From Escherichia phage A5-4, in sequence record OP744025: a stretch of 64,000 nt of DNA. The stretch is one strand, 5' to 3'. This document shows positions 17,284 through 44,122 of this stretch, piece after piece. A program made the position numbers and the translations under genes. Each line of letters opens with the position of its first letter. Positions within the stretch are counted from its first letter, which is position 1. A model generated the notes under the pieces. The model saw nothing but the letters and a program-made list of their open reading frames with translations. It ran no database searches and was not told where the DNA came from.

Positions 17284-17622
17284 TTATAATTCTTCAGTAT
17301 TTTCCACAGCATGAGCCAGTTCACTCAAGAAGTCTTTCAAGCTAATGGTGTACGATTCAACAAGAGCTTCTGCAATTTGGCTCTTAAACTCCGAATCGGC
17401 TAACTCTTCCATCCGGCTATGTACGCTGATGTTCGTAATCAGAAACTTAACGATATAGCTCGCCTTGTAGAGCAAAGGGAAGTAATCTTCTACCATGTTT
17501 TCAATACGGAAGTATTTTTCTGCGTTGTATTCCCACATAAAAACAGCCGTCAGTTCTTTGGCAAGTTCATGGTCTTTTTTAGCCATTGCAATCAGATGTT
17601 CTATCTCTGCTTGTTCAACCAT
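17284..17622 (-). CDS. hypothetical protein
   Basis: ORF track. Confidence 0.55.
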   Translation of the reverse strand: MVEQAEIEHLIAMAKKDHELAKELTAVFMWEYNAEKYFRIENMVEDYFPLLYKASYIVKFLITNISVHSRMEELADSEFKSQIAEALVESYTISLKDFLSELAHAVENTEEL

Positions 17623-17849
17623 TAAATGACCTCCTCTTTAAGAATCTCGCGATGATCTGCGCTGTACCATCCTTTCATCGTATTAACTACACCAACAGCC
17701 TCGCCGTATGTTTCAAATTTCGATTCTTCATGTGGGCCAATACGGACAGTTACCCAAAACAAGTTAAATACTTTACGATGAACTTCGTAATGCGTTGATT
17801 CACCTTTCCGAACTTTAACGATCCGAACTTTCATTATACCACCCTCCAA
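17622..17849 (-). CDS. hypothetical protein
   Basis: ORF track. Confidence 0.5.
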   Translation of the reverse strand: MEGGIMKVRIVKVRKGESTHYEVHRKVFNLFWVTVRIGPHEESKFETYGEAVGVVNTMKGWYSADHREILKEEVI

Positions 17850-18030
17850 AAGTCATAAATGCTTGATCAACCATATCTTTCCACTCAGGGTAGAGAGCAC
17901 AAATCATGATGTAGACCTCTTCATCAATGTCTTCACACTCCTCCATTTCCAAATACTCTACCACAGGTATGGGCAGAAGGCAATTTATTTCTTTACCCCT
18001 GAATTTCAGACCCTTAACTAATTTTAGCAT
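17815..18030 (-). CDS. hypothetical protein with ALYPE motif
   Basis: Contains EDIDEEVYIMICALYPEW, the motif shared by several neighbouring ORFs. Confidence 0.5.
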   Translation of the reverse strand: MLKLVKGLKFRGKEINCLLPIPVVEYLEMEECEDIDEEVYIMICALYPEWKDMVDQAFMTFGGWYNESSDR

Positions 18031-18031
18031 A

Positions 18032-18271
18032 TCAATCCTTAATCACGTAGAATCCTGATTCGTTCATCAGGACAAAGGACTTGCCGAAGAAATCCTTACG
18101 ATTATCCAAAACAAGGTAGAATCTTCGCTCAGACGAGAGGTGATGTGGGTCAGCCATATAGCTTACCCTCGCCGTCATGCCCTTATTCTTGCCCCTCGTG
18201 ATCCTTACCCTTGTACCATTCTCATATTTAATAGACACCGAACCTCCCTTGCAACTCTTTATGAACCGCAT
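18032..18271 (-). CDS. hypothetical protein
   Basis: ORF track. Confidence 0.5.
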   Translation of the reverse strand: MRFIKSCKGGSVSIKYENGTRVRITRGKNKGMTARVSYMADPHHLSSERRFYLVLDNRKDFFGKSFVLMNESGFYVIKD

Positions 18272-18731
18272 CTAATCCTGGCTTCAGTTTTGGAAGATCT
18301 CTTATAAACTCAGGGTATAGGATATTAACGAACTCAATCTCATCATCAGTAGGCTTTTGGGTATCTTCAAAATACTCGTCAAGATTGAATATCTGCCAAT
18401 CCTTATGCCTTGCCTTTCGTATAGCTATGAAGATTTCATTGTTGCAGGTAGCCATCCAGGAAATCCTAGAACCTTCACCTTTACCACTTGGTAGTGTGGA
18501 AACACAGAAGCGTGGTACTTCCCGAACCTTAAAACCCTCGTCATAGTATCCACGACCACGTTGAAATTTAAACTTGGTCTTCCCCACTCTCTGACTAATC
18601 TTCATGTCACGACGAAAGCTGTGGTCAGAAGTATAAATAAGTGGCCTAATGTATCCCGTATGACGGATCTTTTTCCAATTCCAATCTCGAATCAGTATCT
18701 CATAAACTTCCTTAAATGCTTCATACGCCAT
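18228..18731 (-). CDS. hypothetical protein with ALYPE-type motif
   Basis: Contains KPTDDEIEFVNILYPEF. Confidence 0.55.
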   Translation of the reverse strand: MAYEAFKEVYEILIRDWNWKKIRHTGYIRPLIYTSDHSFRRDMKISQRVGKTKFKFQRGRGYYDEGFKVREVPRFCVSTLPSGKGEGSRISWMATCNNEIFIAIRKARHKDWQIFNLDEYFEDTQKPTDDEIEFVNILYPEFIRDLPKLKPGLDAVHKELQGRFGVY

Positions 18732-18960
18732 CGAACGATTCCTTATCTAGAGCACCAACAATCTCGAACTTTGCTACGCCTAAAACAACCACATGACCCA
18801 AGGATTGTACACCTGTCCACGGAGTACCATTCCTCTTAGGTCGCTTACCAGTTACATCGCAGAAATCATTCCGCATTTCTGTTGCATCAAACAACTCGCC
18901 TTTCGGAAAAACATCTTTGAAGTCAGCGATCACGTTAAGACATTTCAGTTTCATATTCAA
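18721..18960 (-). CDS. hypothetical protein
   Basis: ORF track. Confidence 0.5.
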   Translation of the reverse strand: MNMKLKCLNVIADFKDVFPKGELFDATEMRNDFCDVTGKRPKRNGTPWTGVQSLGHVVVLGVAKFEIVGALDKESFDGV

Positions 18961-19297
18961 ACACTCCTCTCTCTAATCTTTGTTTGGCAAGTAACTCCCT
19001 TTGTGCTCTAAGTGGCATCCTGAAAAATATCACAACATTCTCCAAATCTGCCGCCCGTTTTTTAAGCTCTTTGGTGAATTTACCTTCCCGCTTAATTGCA
19101 TCGTATATCTCTCTATACTCATATTCGATAGAGTTGTCTTCAAATATCCGGTTGGCGACCATATTATCAATCTCCATACCGATAGCTTCAAAGCTATACC
19201 AGTCTACATGTTCTTCTGTAACAGGACCTCTTTCTTTGTACACTTGTCCAGTTATTTCATTAACTACGATCGTTGTCATTGGAGTATCTCCTTGCAT
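18935..19297 (-). CDS. hypothetical protein, FFRMP-motif paralog A
   Basis: Shares GMEI...FED.S and FFRMP motifs with the 19260 gene. Confidence 0.5.
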   Translation of the reverse strand: MQGDTPMTTIVVNEITGQVYKERGPVTEEHVDWYSFEAIGMEIDNMVANRIFEDNSIEYEYREIYDAIKREGKFTKELKKRAADLENVVIFFRMPLRAQRELLAKQRLERGVFEYETEMS

Positions 19298-19604
19298 TAT
19301 ACGGCATCCTGAAAAAGTTTAAAAGGTTGTAGATAGCAGCAACCCTCTCTCTTACCTTTTCGTCAGAGAAACAATCAGGACCTTCGCTGCAAAGTTTAAA
19401 ATCTATATCTTCCCACTCAGCGACCACAGATTCGTCTTCGAAAACTCCCTTTTCAAACATCATTCGAATCTCCATCTCCATACCCTTGAAGATTGTAAAA
19501 GTAACATCTTCAGGATCAAGGTATGATACATTGTCTATAAAGAGGCCCCTTTCGGGATAAATGACCATATGCAAAATAATCCTCCTGTGTCCAATATAAT
19601 CCAC
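19260..19604 (-). CDS. hypothetical protein, FFRMP-motif paralog B
   Basis: See paralog A; the DNA repeat ggcatcctgaaaaa occurs in both genes. Confidence 0.5.
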   Translation of the reverse strand: MDYIGHRRIILHMVIYPERGLFIDNVSYLDPEDVTFTIFKGMEMEIRMMFEKGVFEDESVVAEWEDIDFKLCSEGPDCFSDEKVRERVAAIYNLLNFFRMPYNARRYSNDNDRS

Positions 19605-19692
19605 CCAGAAGCGATTTTGACGAGGTTTTCTTAAGATAATGATAAATCACCTTACCTCGTCGTAGACCTCGTTAGAATCGTTCTGAGAGCGT

Positions 19693-19947
19693 TTAAGCCA
19701 TACCGAGCAAATTCATCTCTTTTAACAGGCCTTCCAAGGTAGCATTAAACAACACTGGCTTGCCTTCCTCCAGCTTATTGAAGAAGATTTCATGAGTTTC
19801 ATTATCTATCTTCTCCATCTCTTTTACCACTTCCTCTGACAAAAAGATATCACTACCTTTTAAACCAGGAAACATCAAGAGAATTGCAGTTTTTGCATTT
19901 GTTGCCCAACCCTGACCACCATTCAGACTGAATATCTTAATCATCAT
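19693..19947 (-). CDS. hypothetical protein
   Basis: Internal Met of track ORF 19693..20025 with RBS tggagg. Confidence 0.5.
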   Translation of the reverse strand: MMIKIFSLNGGQGWATNAKTAILLMFPGLKGSDIFLSEEVVKEMEKIDNETHEIFFNKLEEGKPVLFNATLEGLLKEMNLLGMA

Positions 19948-20245
19948 TTTCCTCCAAATTAACCAGTGCAGTTCGGACTTCAAGAAGAGTTGCTGCCCTT
20001 GCCTCGTTTCTCTCTGAGAAATCACGAATCATCATCTTGTACTTCATTTCTTCTTCAGTACGAAGAATTTTCTGTTCGATCAGTTTGTAAACTTGGCCTG
20101 CTCTTTCTGGAAACAACGCTGCAAAGAGATTCCAATCTTCCAATCTACCTTCGTAAGACTCTCCAGAAGTAAAGTACCGATCTCTTTCGATACTGTCAAC
20201 AAAATAGTAGCCGAATTCACCATAACGCCAAGTTTCATTTTTCAT
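19937..20245 (-). CDS. hypothetical protein, paralog of 20407..20646
   Basis: Shared YFTS...EGR.EDW...PE motif. Confidence 0.55.
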   Translation of the reverse strand: MKNETWRYGEFGYYFVDSIERDRYFTSGESYEGRLEDWNLFAALFPERAGQVYKLIEQKILRTEEEMKYKMMIRDFSERNEARAATLLEVRTALVNLEENDD

Positions 20246-20403
20246 TTGATGTACCGAGCAGCAGCCGTACCGATAAGGAAGCCAGCAGGAACTGCGACAA
20301 TGATAGCTTCAATCATTTTAAGATCTGCTGCAACACATGCTGCACCAACAACAACAGAACCAGCCCAGATAGCAATTACACGTTTCAAAAATTTAGTATT
20401 CAT
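20242..20403 (-). CDS. small membrane protein (53 aa)
   Basis: Hand-translated MNTKFLKRVIAIWAGSVVVGAACVAAD...; RBS aggaga; ATGA overlap with downstream start. Confidence 0.5.
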   Translation of the reverse strand: MNTKFLKRVIAIWAGSVVVGAACVAADLKMIEAIIVAVPAGFLIGTAAARYIK

Positions 20404-20406
20404 TCG

Positions 20407-20646
20407 TTAGTCTCCTGATTTTGTTAAGTTTTCTTTTATTTTTACGTACTCGATTAAAGATTTTGCGAGATCACCATCGATTTTCTCACAAACCATGAGT
20501 ATCTCTCTTACCTTTTCGGGATGAACAGATTCATAAAATTTCCAATCCTCTGTTCTCCCCTCTGTGGTTTGGGAAGTGAAGTATTCTTCTCTGTCTCGCT
20601 CCGGTAAGAGATAATATACAAGACTTAGCTTCCTCTCGTCAAGCAT
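20407..20646 (-). CDS. hypothetical protein, paralog of 19937..20245
   Basis: Shared motif. Confidence 0.55.
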   Translation of the reverse strand: MLDERKLSLVYYLLPERDREEYFTSQTTEGRTEDWKFYESVHPEKVREILMVCEKIDGDLAKSLIEYVKIKENLTKSGD

Positions 20647-20655
20647 TTTATCACC

Positions 20656-21027
20656 TTATTCGTAAAAAACCTTATCCGCTTGTTCTTTTAACCAACCCCG
20701 TCGGAAAGCACTCTTAAGTATTTCTGCCCACTTCGGATTTGCTGCCTCTAAGAGAAGTACCTCTTCTTTCTCTATGTTCATAGGATCAGCAAAGAAATCC
20801 AAAATCTCCTCATTGAAGACACCCTCTATCAAGATCCCTTTATATTTCAACGTCAAAAGTTTTGCCATAAAACCTTGAGATATTGCTCCCTCTCTATCAA
20901 TTGTCGTAGTTGGGGGATTTGGAAAAGGGAAACCCTGCATCGGTGTTGGTGATGCACCTGTCTTCACAAAAGTGTTCCCGCCAGTGTTATTGAAGAAACC
21001 TTTCATATTTTTATCGTACAATGACAT
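20656..21027 (-). CDS. hypothetical protein with ALYPE-type motif
   Basis: Contains FADPMNIEKEEVLLLEAANPKW. Confidence 0.5.
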   Translation of the reverse strand: MSLYDKNMKGFFNNTGGNTFVKTGASPTPMQGFPFPNPPTTTIDREGAISQGFMAKLLTLKYKGILIEGVFNEEILDFFADPMNIEKEEVLLLEAANPKWAEILKSAFRRGWLKEQADKVFYE

Positions 21028-21466
21028 TTTCTACCCTCTCTTGAATTTTTATCTCTGCCTCATCTAAAGCTTCCCCCATTGCAAGGATATACCTTGAAAT
21101 TTCAGGGAACAACGCTTCAAACATCTCTATCTCCTCTTCAAGTATATCTGTTGGATCGAAGAAATACTCTTCAAGGACTATTCGCTTTGTCACGATCTTG
21201 TTGCCGTAAGTAACAAAAACGAAACGATCAGGTTTCCCAATAGAATCTTTGGAGGTTCTCCATTGGAAAAGATGCCTGTTTGAACTTATGTTTATCCTTT
21301 TGTCAGCCTTGTCCAGCGGGATTCTAAAACTTACGGATGCTGACATTCCTTCGGATTGAGTCCATTTTTCACTCTTCTTAAAAATATTGTTCCGGTATCT
21401 GTTTTTACCTAAGGCATTAAAAGTCCACTGCCTGCTCAATCTCTCGATTATCTCTTTAGTTTTCAA
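21011..21466 (-). CDS. hypothetical protein with ALYPE-type motif
   Basis: Contains FFDPTDILEEEIEMFEALFPEI. Confidence 0.55.
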   Translation of the reverse strand: MKTKEIIERLSRQWTFNALGKNRYRNNIFKKSEKWTQSEGMSASVSFRIPLDKADKRINISSNRHLFQWRTSKDSIGKPDRFVFVTYGNKIVTKRIVLEEYFFDPTDILEEEIEMFEALFPEISRYILAMGEALDEAEIKIQERVENVIVR

Positions 21467-22014
21467 AACGGTATGTCCTCGTCAACAATAAATTTTATAG
21501 CATTCTTTACAGCCGCTTTATTCAGATGTTGAACACGCTGGAAGAACATTAGGTTCAAGTCAAGAAGAATATCATCATCTCCGTACAACGCCGTGAAAAG
21601 ATCAAGCTCTTCATCTGTCGGATGCGTGGGATTCTCAAATAAGCCCTCAAACACCACCTGGGCCTCATTTCTTTTAGCCAGCGTGGTTGAGTCTCGATAG
21701 ATATTTAATACCGTGTGTACATCATCTACGCTTAGGATTTTGACACATTCCAGATCTCCTGTGTCACCATCGAGATAAAGAGTGATCGCAGGAGTTGACC
21801 AATTTGATTCACTTATTGCATAAACGTAGATGCTTTTGCGATTACCAACTGCAATAGACTCTTCAATTTTCTTTTCTGCCGCCTTAAAGAAAGGTTGGTG
21901 TTTGATCCAATGCTCCCAACCAATCCAACGAGCACCCTTACCATACGCATTCAGCACATGATTCTCAATGTTACGTTTACTCTTTAAAACCTCCATAAAA
22001 GAAAAGCCAGCCAC
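21463..22014 (-). CDS. hypothetical protein with ALYPE-type motif
   Basis: Contains NPTHPTDEELDLFTALYGDD. Confidence 0.55.
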   Translation of the reverse strand: MAGFSFMEVLKSKRNIENHVLNAYGKGARWIGWEHWIKHQPFFKAAEKKIEESIAVGNRKSIYVYAISESNWSTPAITLYLDGDTGDLECVKILSVDDVHTVLNIYRDSTTLAKRNEAQVVFEGLFENPTHPTDEELDLFTALYGDDDILLDLNLMFFQRVQHLNKAAVKNAIKFIVDEDIPF

Positions 22015-26277: not shown

Positions 26278-26733
26278 TTACCCCTGTTTAAGCTTAAAAG
26301 ATTTAAAGGCTTCGATAAAGTCCATTTCTTTTTGCGTGTATTTGTGGTCAATTGTATCAGAGAAAAGAGGGCAACGACCATCAACCAACTTCACATCCCA
26401 CAGATGTTGAGGGAGAATAAATGCAATGGCTGTAAGTGCACCATTCAAAGAATCATTCTCCTCGCAGAAAAATGCGTAAGGAATCTTCTCTATGTTTGGA
26501 GCTAAAAATCCTTCTGCAAAATTAAGCATCTTCGATTGATAGCCTCCGTTCAACAAGATCATTGTTTGGTCTTTGCTTTGCCACTGATCTACAAGGTTGT
26601 ATCTGTCATCATATCGATCGGCATAGGCAAATCCATAATGACCTACAAGGTTTGCTGCTGCATGTGCTGCTTGGATACCTGCTTGGATTCCCATCATGTA
26701 GCTGTTTACCAATACGTACATCCGAGTTTTCAA
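26278..26733 (-). CDS. hypothetical protein
   Basis: ORF track. Confidence 0.55.
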   Translation of the reverse strand: MKTRMYVLVNSYMMGIQAGIQAAHAAANLVGHYGFAYADRYDDRYNLVDQWQSKDQTMILLNGGYQSKMLNFAEGFLAPNIEKIPYAFFCEENDSLNGALTAIAFILPQHLWDVKLVDGRCPLFSDTIDHKYTQKEMDFIEAFKSFKLKQG

Positions 26734-27050
26734 TTCTTACCTCCAAAAATTCGTTTTGCAAACTTTTCATTACCAATCGTTAGATTATAAACAACCATAG
26801 TTGAATAAACAATCCACGCAAGAGCATAAAACAAAATCAAGAAAGGCCACCCTACAAACCAGAATACAGTCATTATTAACCAACCTAGCATCAGGAGTTT
26901 ATAATTAACATTTCCGTGATTTAAAGGGTCGAGTAAGTTACTGTTTTCTGGCAAAGGGATACGAAACCCGCCCTGGCGAAGCTTGATTAACAAGAACCAA
27001 GCGGCAGAACTTATAATGCAACATAAAATATACGTTAATAAACTTGTCAT
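26730..27050 (-). CDS. membrane protein, tandem paralog 1
   Basis: Shares WFLLIKLRQ.GF.IP.P motif with the adjacent 27047 gene. Confidence 0.55.
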   Translation of the reverse strand: MTSLLTYILCCIISSAAWFLLIKLRQGGFRIPLPENSNLLDPLNHGNVNYKLLMLGWLIMTVFWFVGWPFLILFYALAWIVYSTMVVYNLTIGNEKFAKRIFGGKN

Positions 27051-27376
27051 TTTTTAACCCCAAAGATCTTAGTTAGTAATTTATCATTCCCTATAGTAAG
27101 GCCACATAAACTTTTTATACCGAACACCAAGTACGACCCAATTGTAACACAGATAATAATTGGGTAAACAAGATACCAGAAGAATGTTGCACATAGCCAA
27201 CCAACCATGACCATACGTAAATTTACATTTTCATTGTTCAGGGGTTCTAGGATATACAGGTCTTCACTATCCTTGGGGAAGGGGATGTTGAACCCCTTCT
27301 GCCGTAATTTGATCAATAAGAACCAAAGTGGACAACTGATCAAACAACCTATTAAATAACCTTCAACCATTTTCAC
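27047..27376 (-). CDS. membrane protein, tandem paralog 2
   Basis: See paralog 1. Confidence 0.55.
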   Translation of the reverse strand: MKMVEGYLIGCLISCPLWFLLIKLRQKGFNIPFPKDSEDLYILEPLNNENVNLRMVMVGWLCATFFWYLVYPIIICVTIGSYLVFGIKSLCGLTIGNDKLLTKIFGVKK

Positions 27377-28993: not shown

Positions 28994-29029
28994 AAAAAAA
29001 AAAAAAAAAAGGCCACCCGAAGGTGACCT
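28994..29029 (-). terminator. intrinsic terminator (hairpin then about 17-nt T run on minus strand)
   Basis: ggccaccc gaag gtgacc hairpin 29011-29029 next to A17 on the plus strand; downstream of the stop of gene 29036..29545. Confidence 0.55.
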
Positions 29030-38044: not shown

Positions 38045-38066
38045 AAAAAACCGCCCCGAAGGGCGG
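38045..38066 (-). terminator. intrinsic terminator (ccgccc cgaa gggcgg then T run on minus strand)
   Basis: Hairpin 38051-38066; A-run on plus side; downstream of the stop of gene 38073..38261. Confidence 0.65.
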
Positions 38067-38072
38067 TTAATT

Positions 38073-38269: not shown

Positions 38270-38291
38270 TCAGAACCGCCCCGAAGGGCGG
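38270..38291 (-). terminator. intrinsic terminator (ccgccc cgaa gggcgg)
   Basis: Hairpin 38276-38291 followed on minus strand by a T-rich run; downstream of the nrdA stop. Confidence 0.65.
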
Positions 38292-38301
38292 TTATTTATT
38301 G

Positions 38302-44089: not shown

Positions 44090-44111
44090 AAAAAACCGCC
44101 CCGAAGGGCGG
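44090..44111 (-). terminator. intrinsic terminator (ccgccc cgaa gggcgg)
   Basis: Same hairpin as at 38051 and 38276; downstream of the stop of gene 44123..45217. Confidence 0.65.
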
Positions 44112-44122
44112 TTAAATCAAAA

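Follow-up and report, generated by a model that had tools for sequence, protein, structure and literature searches.

Gene models and genome setting

The window, by which we mean the whole 64,000-nt stretch that was analysed, contains on its minus strand two ORFs (18935..19297 and 19260..19604) that hold a pair of small genes, designated A (downstream) and B (upstream) (Table 1). For gene A the most likely start codon is ATG 19279, with a Shine-Dalgarno sequence AAGGAG (19293-19288) found 8 nt upstream, within the gene B codons for A-R-R. The start of gene B is likely to be either ATG 19568 or TTG 19574, the latter lying 6 nt after an AGGAGG (19586-19581) and giving a protein of 104 residues; GenBank records differ on this point, both starts having been used by annotators. 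The stop codon of gene B (19260-19262) is 17 nt within gene A, and the overlap between the two genes is a probable site of translational coupling.

Table 1. Features of the A/B locus, in window coordinates
Feature	Position	Strand	Description
Gene A (downstream paralog)	18935..19279	-	114 aa from ATG 19279; pI 4.9
Gene B (upstream paralog)	19260..19568	-	102 aa from ATG 19568; acidic, pI 4.4
A/B overlap	19260..19279	-	20 nt; 5' end of gene A, also read in a different frame as the 3' end of gene B
Leader upstream of gene B	19569..19692	-	Intergenic; joined directly to gene A in genomes lacking gene B
14-mer, copy 1	19014..19027		GGCATCCTGAAAAA on +, TTT TTC AGG ATG CC on -; FFRMP 85-89 of A
14-mer, copy 2	19303..19316		GGCATCCTGAAAAA on +; FFRMP 85-89 of B
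G-M-E-I block of A, predicted helix 1	19167..19180	-	GGT ATG GAG ATT GA; from the codon alignment
G-M-E-M-E(-I) block of B, predicted helix 1	19471..19484	-	GGT ATG GAG ATG GA; from the codon alignment

The region 17000-22000 was compared with the genomes of five Vequintavirinae coliphages (A7_1, A73, W70, UPEC06 and vB_EcoM-LTH01, hereafter LTH01), to which it is 92-97% identical, the figure for A7_1 being 97%. The source of the window is a Septuagintavirus-like (Vequintavirinae) E. coli phage; W70, A73, A7_1 and A5-4 have recently been assigned to the genus Septuagintavirus, with UPEC06 left unclassified (2026 paper, PMC13538427). The A/B pair sits inside a long minus-strand block of small genes, every one of which is annotated as hypothetical, and all PHROG matches in the block around it are to families of unknown function. 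Gene B is annotated in A7_1, A73, W70 and UPEC06. Gene A is annotated in UPEC06 and LTH01 and has no annotation in the GenBank records of A7_1, A73 and W70, where it is nonetheless intact and 94-100% identical (locus L001, 4956-5260, for A7_1; L004 and L005, 1521-1825, for A73 and W70). Across five phage genomes its identity is 91-100%.

Several other features of the window were seen in passing. Seven small minus-strand genes that flank the pair (17815-18030, 18228-18731, 19937-20245, 20407-20646, 20656-21027, 21011-21466 and 21463-22014) have in common a C-terminal motif of approximately (D/E)E-x-x-x-F-x-A-L-(Y/F)-P-E, e.g. EIEFVNILYPEF, EIEMFEALFPEI and EDWNLFAALFPER. BLASTP supports a relationship only for 21011/18228 (E 4e-4) and 19937/20407 (E 1e-7), and an HMM built from hand-picked segments of the seven genes returned its own seeds only, which is circular; these genes may form a larger and very diverged paralog array, perhaps more interesting than A/B. 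The leader upstream of gene B contains an inverted repeat, GACGAGGT...ACCTCGTC, as well as a block, GTAAGGTGATTTATCAT, shared even with a distant single-copy relative (L006, 3850-3990); this may be a promoter or regulatory site of the gene cassette. Further away there are three copies of a 21-nt palindromic, GC-rich repeat, AACCGCCCCGAAGGGCGGTTA (38049-38069, 38274-38294 and 44094-44114), which can form a hairpin (CCGCCC-CGAA-GGGCGG) and could be a terminator or regulatory stem-loop. There are also five tRNA genes on the plus strand (Met, Tyr, Gly, Gln and Pro; 61369-63124), a 19-nt sequence, TTATGAATGAAATGAATAA, repeated 31 nt apart (59121-59170), and a run of 17 A (28994-29010).

Reality and homology of the two genes

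Comparison with relatives shows A and B to be real protein-coding genes under purifying selection. Both ORFs are intact in every genome having them, and dN/dS between the window and UPEC06 is 0.10 for A and 0.14 for B (0.10 outside the overlap). Amino acid identity between the same two genomes is 91% for A and 83% for B, and gene B appears to evolve faster than gene A. It is hardly conceivable that the resemblance between A and B arose by chance or composition in two acidic helical ORFs, one or both of which would be no genes at all. The missing annotation of gene A in three records and the lack of database family matches would fit such a reading, but the similarity is significant under composition-adjusted statistics, the ORFs are intact everywhere with low dN/dS, UPEC06 and LTH01 do have gene A annotated, the AF2 cores are confident and of the same topology, and profiles link the proteins to other phage genera.

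The first-pass annotation, which saw A and B as tandem paralogs, was right in this respect. The two proteins have 31/92 identical residues in BLASTP (34%, E 8e-11 with composition-adjusted statistics), and the pair is recovered in an all-against-all search of the 424 window ORFs (E 2.7e-8). The similarity covers most of their length, the genes are adjacent on the same strand with a 20-nt overlap, and the proteins form a clade against the single-copy orthologues and share derived features (see below). It had also been proposed that the copies diverge everywhere except in two short segments, which understates their likeness since 33 identical residues are spread throughout the predicted three-helix core. 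The C-terminal motif FFRMP(L/Y)xA(Q/R)R is present in both proteins exactly as first written. The N-terminal motif needs amending: the string originally given is the sequence of gene A only, and the part common to both is F....MEI..M.....FED.S, gene B reading FKGMEMEIRMMFEKGVFEDES. At the nucleotide level, the G-M-E blocks of the two genes match at 13/14 positions (19167-19180 in A and 19471-19484 in B). A profile of the pair found no third copy in the window, where the two ORFs are its sole matches.

Other paralogs lie side by side in this genome, and local duplication followed by deep divergence is, judging from the ORF comparisons, the norm in it. Adjacent sets are found at 26730/27047 (26730-27376; 43% identity, E 5e-29), 60243/60460 (60243-60678) and 19937/20407, and there is a tandem triple at 12846/13998/15145 (12846-16377) encoding proteins of 380-414 residues. 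These sets belong to families unrelated to A/B, and presence/absence polymorphism of one copy has been shown only for A/B. Two dispersed pairs were also noted (16730-16957/10744-10950 and 4625-4825/3264-3401).

The 14-nt repeat

The sequence GGCATCCTGAAAAA occurs twice in the 64 kb and nowhere else. As noted earlier, it is found in both genes and encodes FFRMP on the minus strand; its positions are 19014 and 19303 (first given as about 19012 and 19305). The two copies are in register (nt 253-266 of each ORF) and code for F85-F86-R87-M88-P89. As an independent mark of the duplication, however, the repeat is not supported. With FFRMP conserved, identical codons for F, F and R in both copies have a probability of about 0.06 under window codon usage, the identity ends at the edges of the peptide, the Pro codons being different (CCA versus CCG), and gene B of UPEC06 has undergone a synonymous change (TTC TTC AGG ATG CC, 13/14), so that only gene A of this phage keeps the 14-mer. 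On these grounds we conclude that the 14-mer would be a by-product of a conserved FFRMP and of coincident codon choice rather than a DNA element. The copy in gene A is invariant across all six genomes compared, and the 14-mer was found in none of the outgroups or more distant homologues compared; conservation beyond what the peptide needs, with retention at the orthologous positions of relatives, was not seen. Gene conversion was also considered as its source and rejected, the identity stopping exactly at the peptide boundaries and the third position of the Pro codon already being different.

A functional role at the DNA or RNA level, be it as a promoter spacer, as a recombination site for gain and loss of a copy, or as a site of ribosomal frameshifting (TTT TTC and then the rare codon AGG), is very improbable. 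The copy in gene B does form the spacer of a sigma-70-like TTTAAA-N16-TATAAT (10/12; minus strand, 19323..19296) just upstream of gene A. In addition, within B the frame of gene A is open after a TAA that closely precedes the motif, and a +1 shift there would fuse B to A; AGG accounts for just 11% of the Arg codons of the window. These properties are not shared by the copy in gene A, which has no promoter-like hexamers nearby and whose +1 frame hits a TAG within 19 codons, before the next gene; the two copies thus have no DNA-level context in common. Promoter-like matches in the region are only in modest excess (7 versus 3.4 +/- 2.2 in shuffles), and the TTC TTC AGG of UPEC06 B breaks the T-run and weakens the -35. 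Conservation in the zero frame extends to the peptide past the motif, P(L/Y)xA(Q/R)R, which implies that this frame is read, and in the genomes lacking B the deletion does not run between the 14-mers, its junction being at the start codons. A programmed +1 frameshift at TTT TTC AGG giving a B-A fusion was accordingly rejected (no parallel at the A copy, broken T-run in UPEC06, conserved zero-frame peptide), as was deletion of gene B by recombination between the 14-mers, the junction in LTH01 and in a contig from SRR29026051 joining leader and start codons. The promoter-like sequence itself falls inside the 3' end of gene B, and in UPEC06 its -10 is kept.

Single-copy relatives and known families

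An exhaustive profile search (HMMER) of 1.84 billion representative proteins gave five matches at E<=0.001, i.e. the A cluster, the B cluster, P0003, P0005 and P0004. The last of these (778 aa, eight repeats) was judged to be a spurious match amplified by its repeats. P0007 was added by a word-indexed profile search, and tblastn with P0003 revealed single-copy homologues of 109 residues in F1M1E, PcCB7V and other Certrevirus phages. No relatives came from an alignment scan of viral contigs or from a metagenome scan with protein A. When fetched loci were examined with the profile HMM, two copies were present in the window, A7_1, UPEC06, A73 and W70. A single copy was found in LTH01, five metagenomic loci, two Certrevirus phages and AH04 (gp9), and also in SRR29026051. 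The search for single-copy orthologues in related phages that the first-pass annotation had called for has therefore been run, and such orthologues exist.

Among the outgroups, P0003, P0005 and P0007 lie on metagenomic phage contigs (loci L006-L010) in the slot of A/B, between the orthologues of window 19693-19944 and 18721-18954. They keep FEDSSIE and GxFSxxLKxR and are 33-38% identical to A but, unlike A/B, occur in one copy, are 84-90 residues long, have no YxERG extension and read (D/N)FY(R/T/K) in place of FFRMP. The Certrevirus proteins, e.g. those of vB_ExiM_F1M1E (UNA02814.1) and PcCB7V (QQG33478.1), are matched by a profile of A, B and close relatives (E 4e-9 to 1e-8). They resemble A/B in being encoded by small genes in Vequintavirinae hypothetical-gene blocks and in the pattern of their three-helix core, ED-x-W-(Y/H)-x-(F/W)-EA ... 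G-x-FS-x-x-L-(K/R)-x-RA. They differ in being single-copy, in having neither the N-terminal hairpin nor FFRMP, in reading FVSKG for FEDxS, and in their longer and different C-terminal tail. In gp9 of the Erwinia jumbo phage AH04 (QZA70499.1, 189 aa), the helical core is found at residues ~109-183 (profile E 8e-9). Here, however, the module is a C-terminal domain behind an unrelated N-terminal domain of ~105 residues, and the gene has a different context, beside thymidylate kinase and terminase.

These relatives provide a connection to a known protein family. The 109-residue Certrevirus proteins are examples of phrog_12468 (unknown function), the HMM of which matches Certrevirus at 1e-56, AH04 at 1e-10, P0003 at 1.8e-7 and P0005 at 8e-3; its match to A is weak (E 0.038) and B is not matched. 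The link of A/B to this family would thus be transitive, via P0003 and the Certrevirus/AH04 members that an A/B profile detects at ~1e-8.

Age and origin of the duplication

In a neighbour-joining tree, A and B group together with 80% bootstrap, a moderate value obtained from distances over 85 columns only. The two proteins also share an N-terminal extension, (V/I)Y(K/P)ERG (YxERG), and FFRMPxxAxR, which are found in A and B only and are absent from the outgroups. Because of this grouping and of these shared derived characters, the duplication is taken, on the sequences compared, to be specific to this coliphage lineage.

It had been described as recent, which does not hold. Over aligned codons A and B are 54% identical in nucleotides, and in amino acids their identity (36%) equals that between A and the outgroups (33-38%). 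Synonymous divergence between the window and UPEC06, which both carry the two copies, is already 0.45 for A and 0.74 for B (0.79 outside the overlap), so that on these estimates the duplication predates the divergence of the phages that carry both copies. For these three reasons, a low nucleotide identity with codon identity not significantly above expectation (see below), an A-B distance no smaller than that to the outgroups and an origin before the split of the carrier phages, the duplication is not recent; neither high nucleotide identity, nor unsaturated synonymous sites, nor an age younger than the genome split was found. A recent tandem duplication that diverged outside two constrained segments, leaving the 14-mer as a remnant of the original identity, is therefore most implausible. 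The 14-mer is exact and in register, and there is a second 13/14 block at the GME motif. Identical non-Met residues use the same codon slightly more often than expected from window codon usage (16/29 versus 12), but this excess is not significant (P=0.09); a weak nucleotide-level signal beyond codon usage may still be left. Low overall nucleotide identity, the presence of both copies in phages separated by dS of 0.45-0.79, an A-B distance as large as that to orthologues of other phage lineages, and a 14-mer already synonymously changed in UPEC06 B all speak against recency.

We thus regard A and B, with good though not complete confidence, as tandem copies that arose long ago, and in this lineage only, from a small accessory gene with a predicted three-helix core; in relatives this gene is single-copy in the same slot, and both copies are under purifying selection. 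Sequence comparison suggests how the event may have shaped gene B. The 20-nt overlap (19260..19279) would be the probable duplication junction, at which the upstream copy was truncated, its tail now running out of frame over the start of A. The last eight codons of gene B have no counterpart in A or in the outgroups, and the C-terminal helix of A (…LAKQRLERG…), matched in P0003 (…FAKQRAKEH…), is absent from B, which may have lost this ancestral helix.

An alternative scenario is that B is a homologue which entered by recombination with a more distant phage and was inserted beside A, LTH01 and SRR29026051 having kept the original single-copy state. This would account for every outgroup being single-copy, for the clean state of the genomes lacking B, with the leader directly before A, and for an A-B divergence as large as that between lineages, in phages that are visibly mosaic. 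It seems difficult to reconcile, however, with derived characters unique to A and B, i.e. (V/I)Y(K/P)ERG, M-E-I and FFRMPxxAxR, and with their grouping in the tree. Nor was any B-like single-copy gene found among the 1.84 billion representative proteins, and gene A of LTH01 is nested beside that of UPEC06 (dS 0.16), a phage that has B. We consider acquisition improbable.

Loss of gene B and mosaicism

In LTH01 and in one SRR29026051 contig, only gene A is found and the B ORF is cleanly missing, the leader normally before B being fused to the ATG of A with the same junction in both. Gene B is therefore taken to be dispensable, whichever way its absence from these two related genomes arose. Gene A of LTH01 is 100% identical in amino acids to that of UPEC06 (dS 0.16), while the more diverged UPEC06 and window (dS 0.45 in gene A) both carry B. 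The absence of B would thus be explained most simply if B had been lost secondarily, or else by an old polymorphism in its presence that recombination has shuffled. Signs of recombination are indeed visible within the locus. The window does not differ from A73/W70 anywhere in B or at the start of A; 17 differences then follow within a 135-nt patch, after which the sequences are identical again, which suggests a short recombination event in A. This patch corresponds to window ~19038-19172, in the middle of gene A, and the window equals A7_1 throughout. Since these phages are visibly mosaic, recombination could blur genealogical arguments on A and B.

Predicted structure and possible function

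AlphaFold2 models were computed for both proteins from an alignment of only eight sequences. The model of A (mean pLDDT 80, pTM 0.69; E4-6, E13-15, H27-42, H50-65, H70-87, H90-113) has a short N-terminal beta-hairpin, a block of three helices (27-42, 50-65 and 70-87) with pLDDT of 86-96, and a C-terminal helix (90-113) predicted with lower confidence. That of B (pLDDT 76) has helices 24-39, 47-62 and 70-87 and disordered tails. Three antiparallel helices with a hydrophobic core are seen in the predicted models. A and B are acidic proteins of ~12-13.6 kDa with a predicted three-helix-bundle core. In the predicted model, GME(I) is in the middle of helix 1, FEDxS makes up the loop between helices 1 and 2 together with the helix 2 N-cap, helix 3 closes with FFR, and the chain turns into helix 4 at M-P. 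The conserved islands would thus be structural positions. The family-wide invariants (F30, I37, F46, E47, D48, E54, I58, G66, F68, R75 and F85) are, on the model, mostly core hydrophobics and loop glycines or turn positions.

Searches for structural neighbours of the AlphaFold model returned none that were informative; the 189-residue BFVD model at Foldseek rank 3 is probably AH04 gp9. Neither A, nor B, nor their profile had a match in Pfam, PADLOC or PDB sequences, no characterised protein of known defence or anti-defence families was matched in sequence or fold, and these genes were not found described in the literature searched. The size, fold and acidity of the proteins, together with their genomic setting and accessory behaviour, are what points to a role, tentatively that of non-enzymatic accessory modules binding a partner from host or phage, the two copies having partly diverged in target or partner. 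A more specific version of this idea, in which A and B would be small acidic inhibitors, diversifying as a pair, that are involved in host takeover or anti-defence and cover two variants of a host target, is doubtful. Were it correct, the faster evolution of B, the loss of its C-terminal helix and presence/absence polymorphism among near-identical phages could be read as the footprint of an arms race, and the A/B-specific FFRMP turn and N-terminal hairpin might be a newly acquired interaction surface.

Significance

The A/B pair is a real but ordinary accessory-gene duplication, the importance of which lies mainly in annotation, and the DNA repeat has no independent meaning. Three GenBank records lack gene A, which is real and conserved, and A and B can now be placed as probable divergent members of an uncharacterised (phrog_12468-like) phage family. 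The locus offers a clean example, from little-studied coliphages, of a duplicated gene with truncation at the junction and subsequent loss of one copy. Should the proteins prove to act on host factors or defence systems, genomes that naturally have one copy or two would serve as a ready comparison set.
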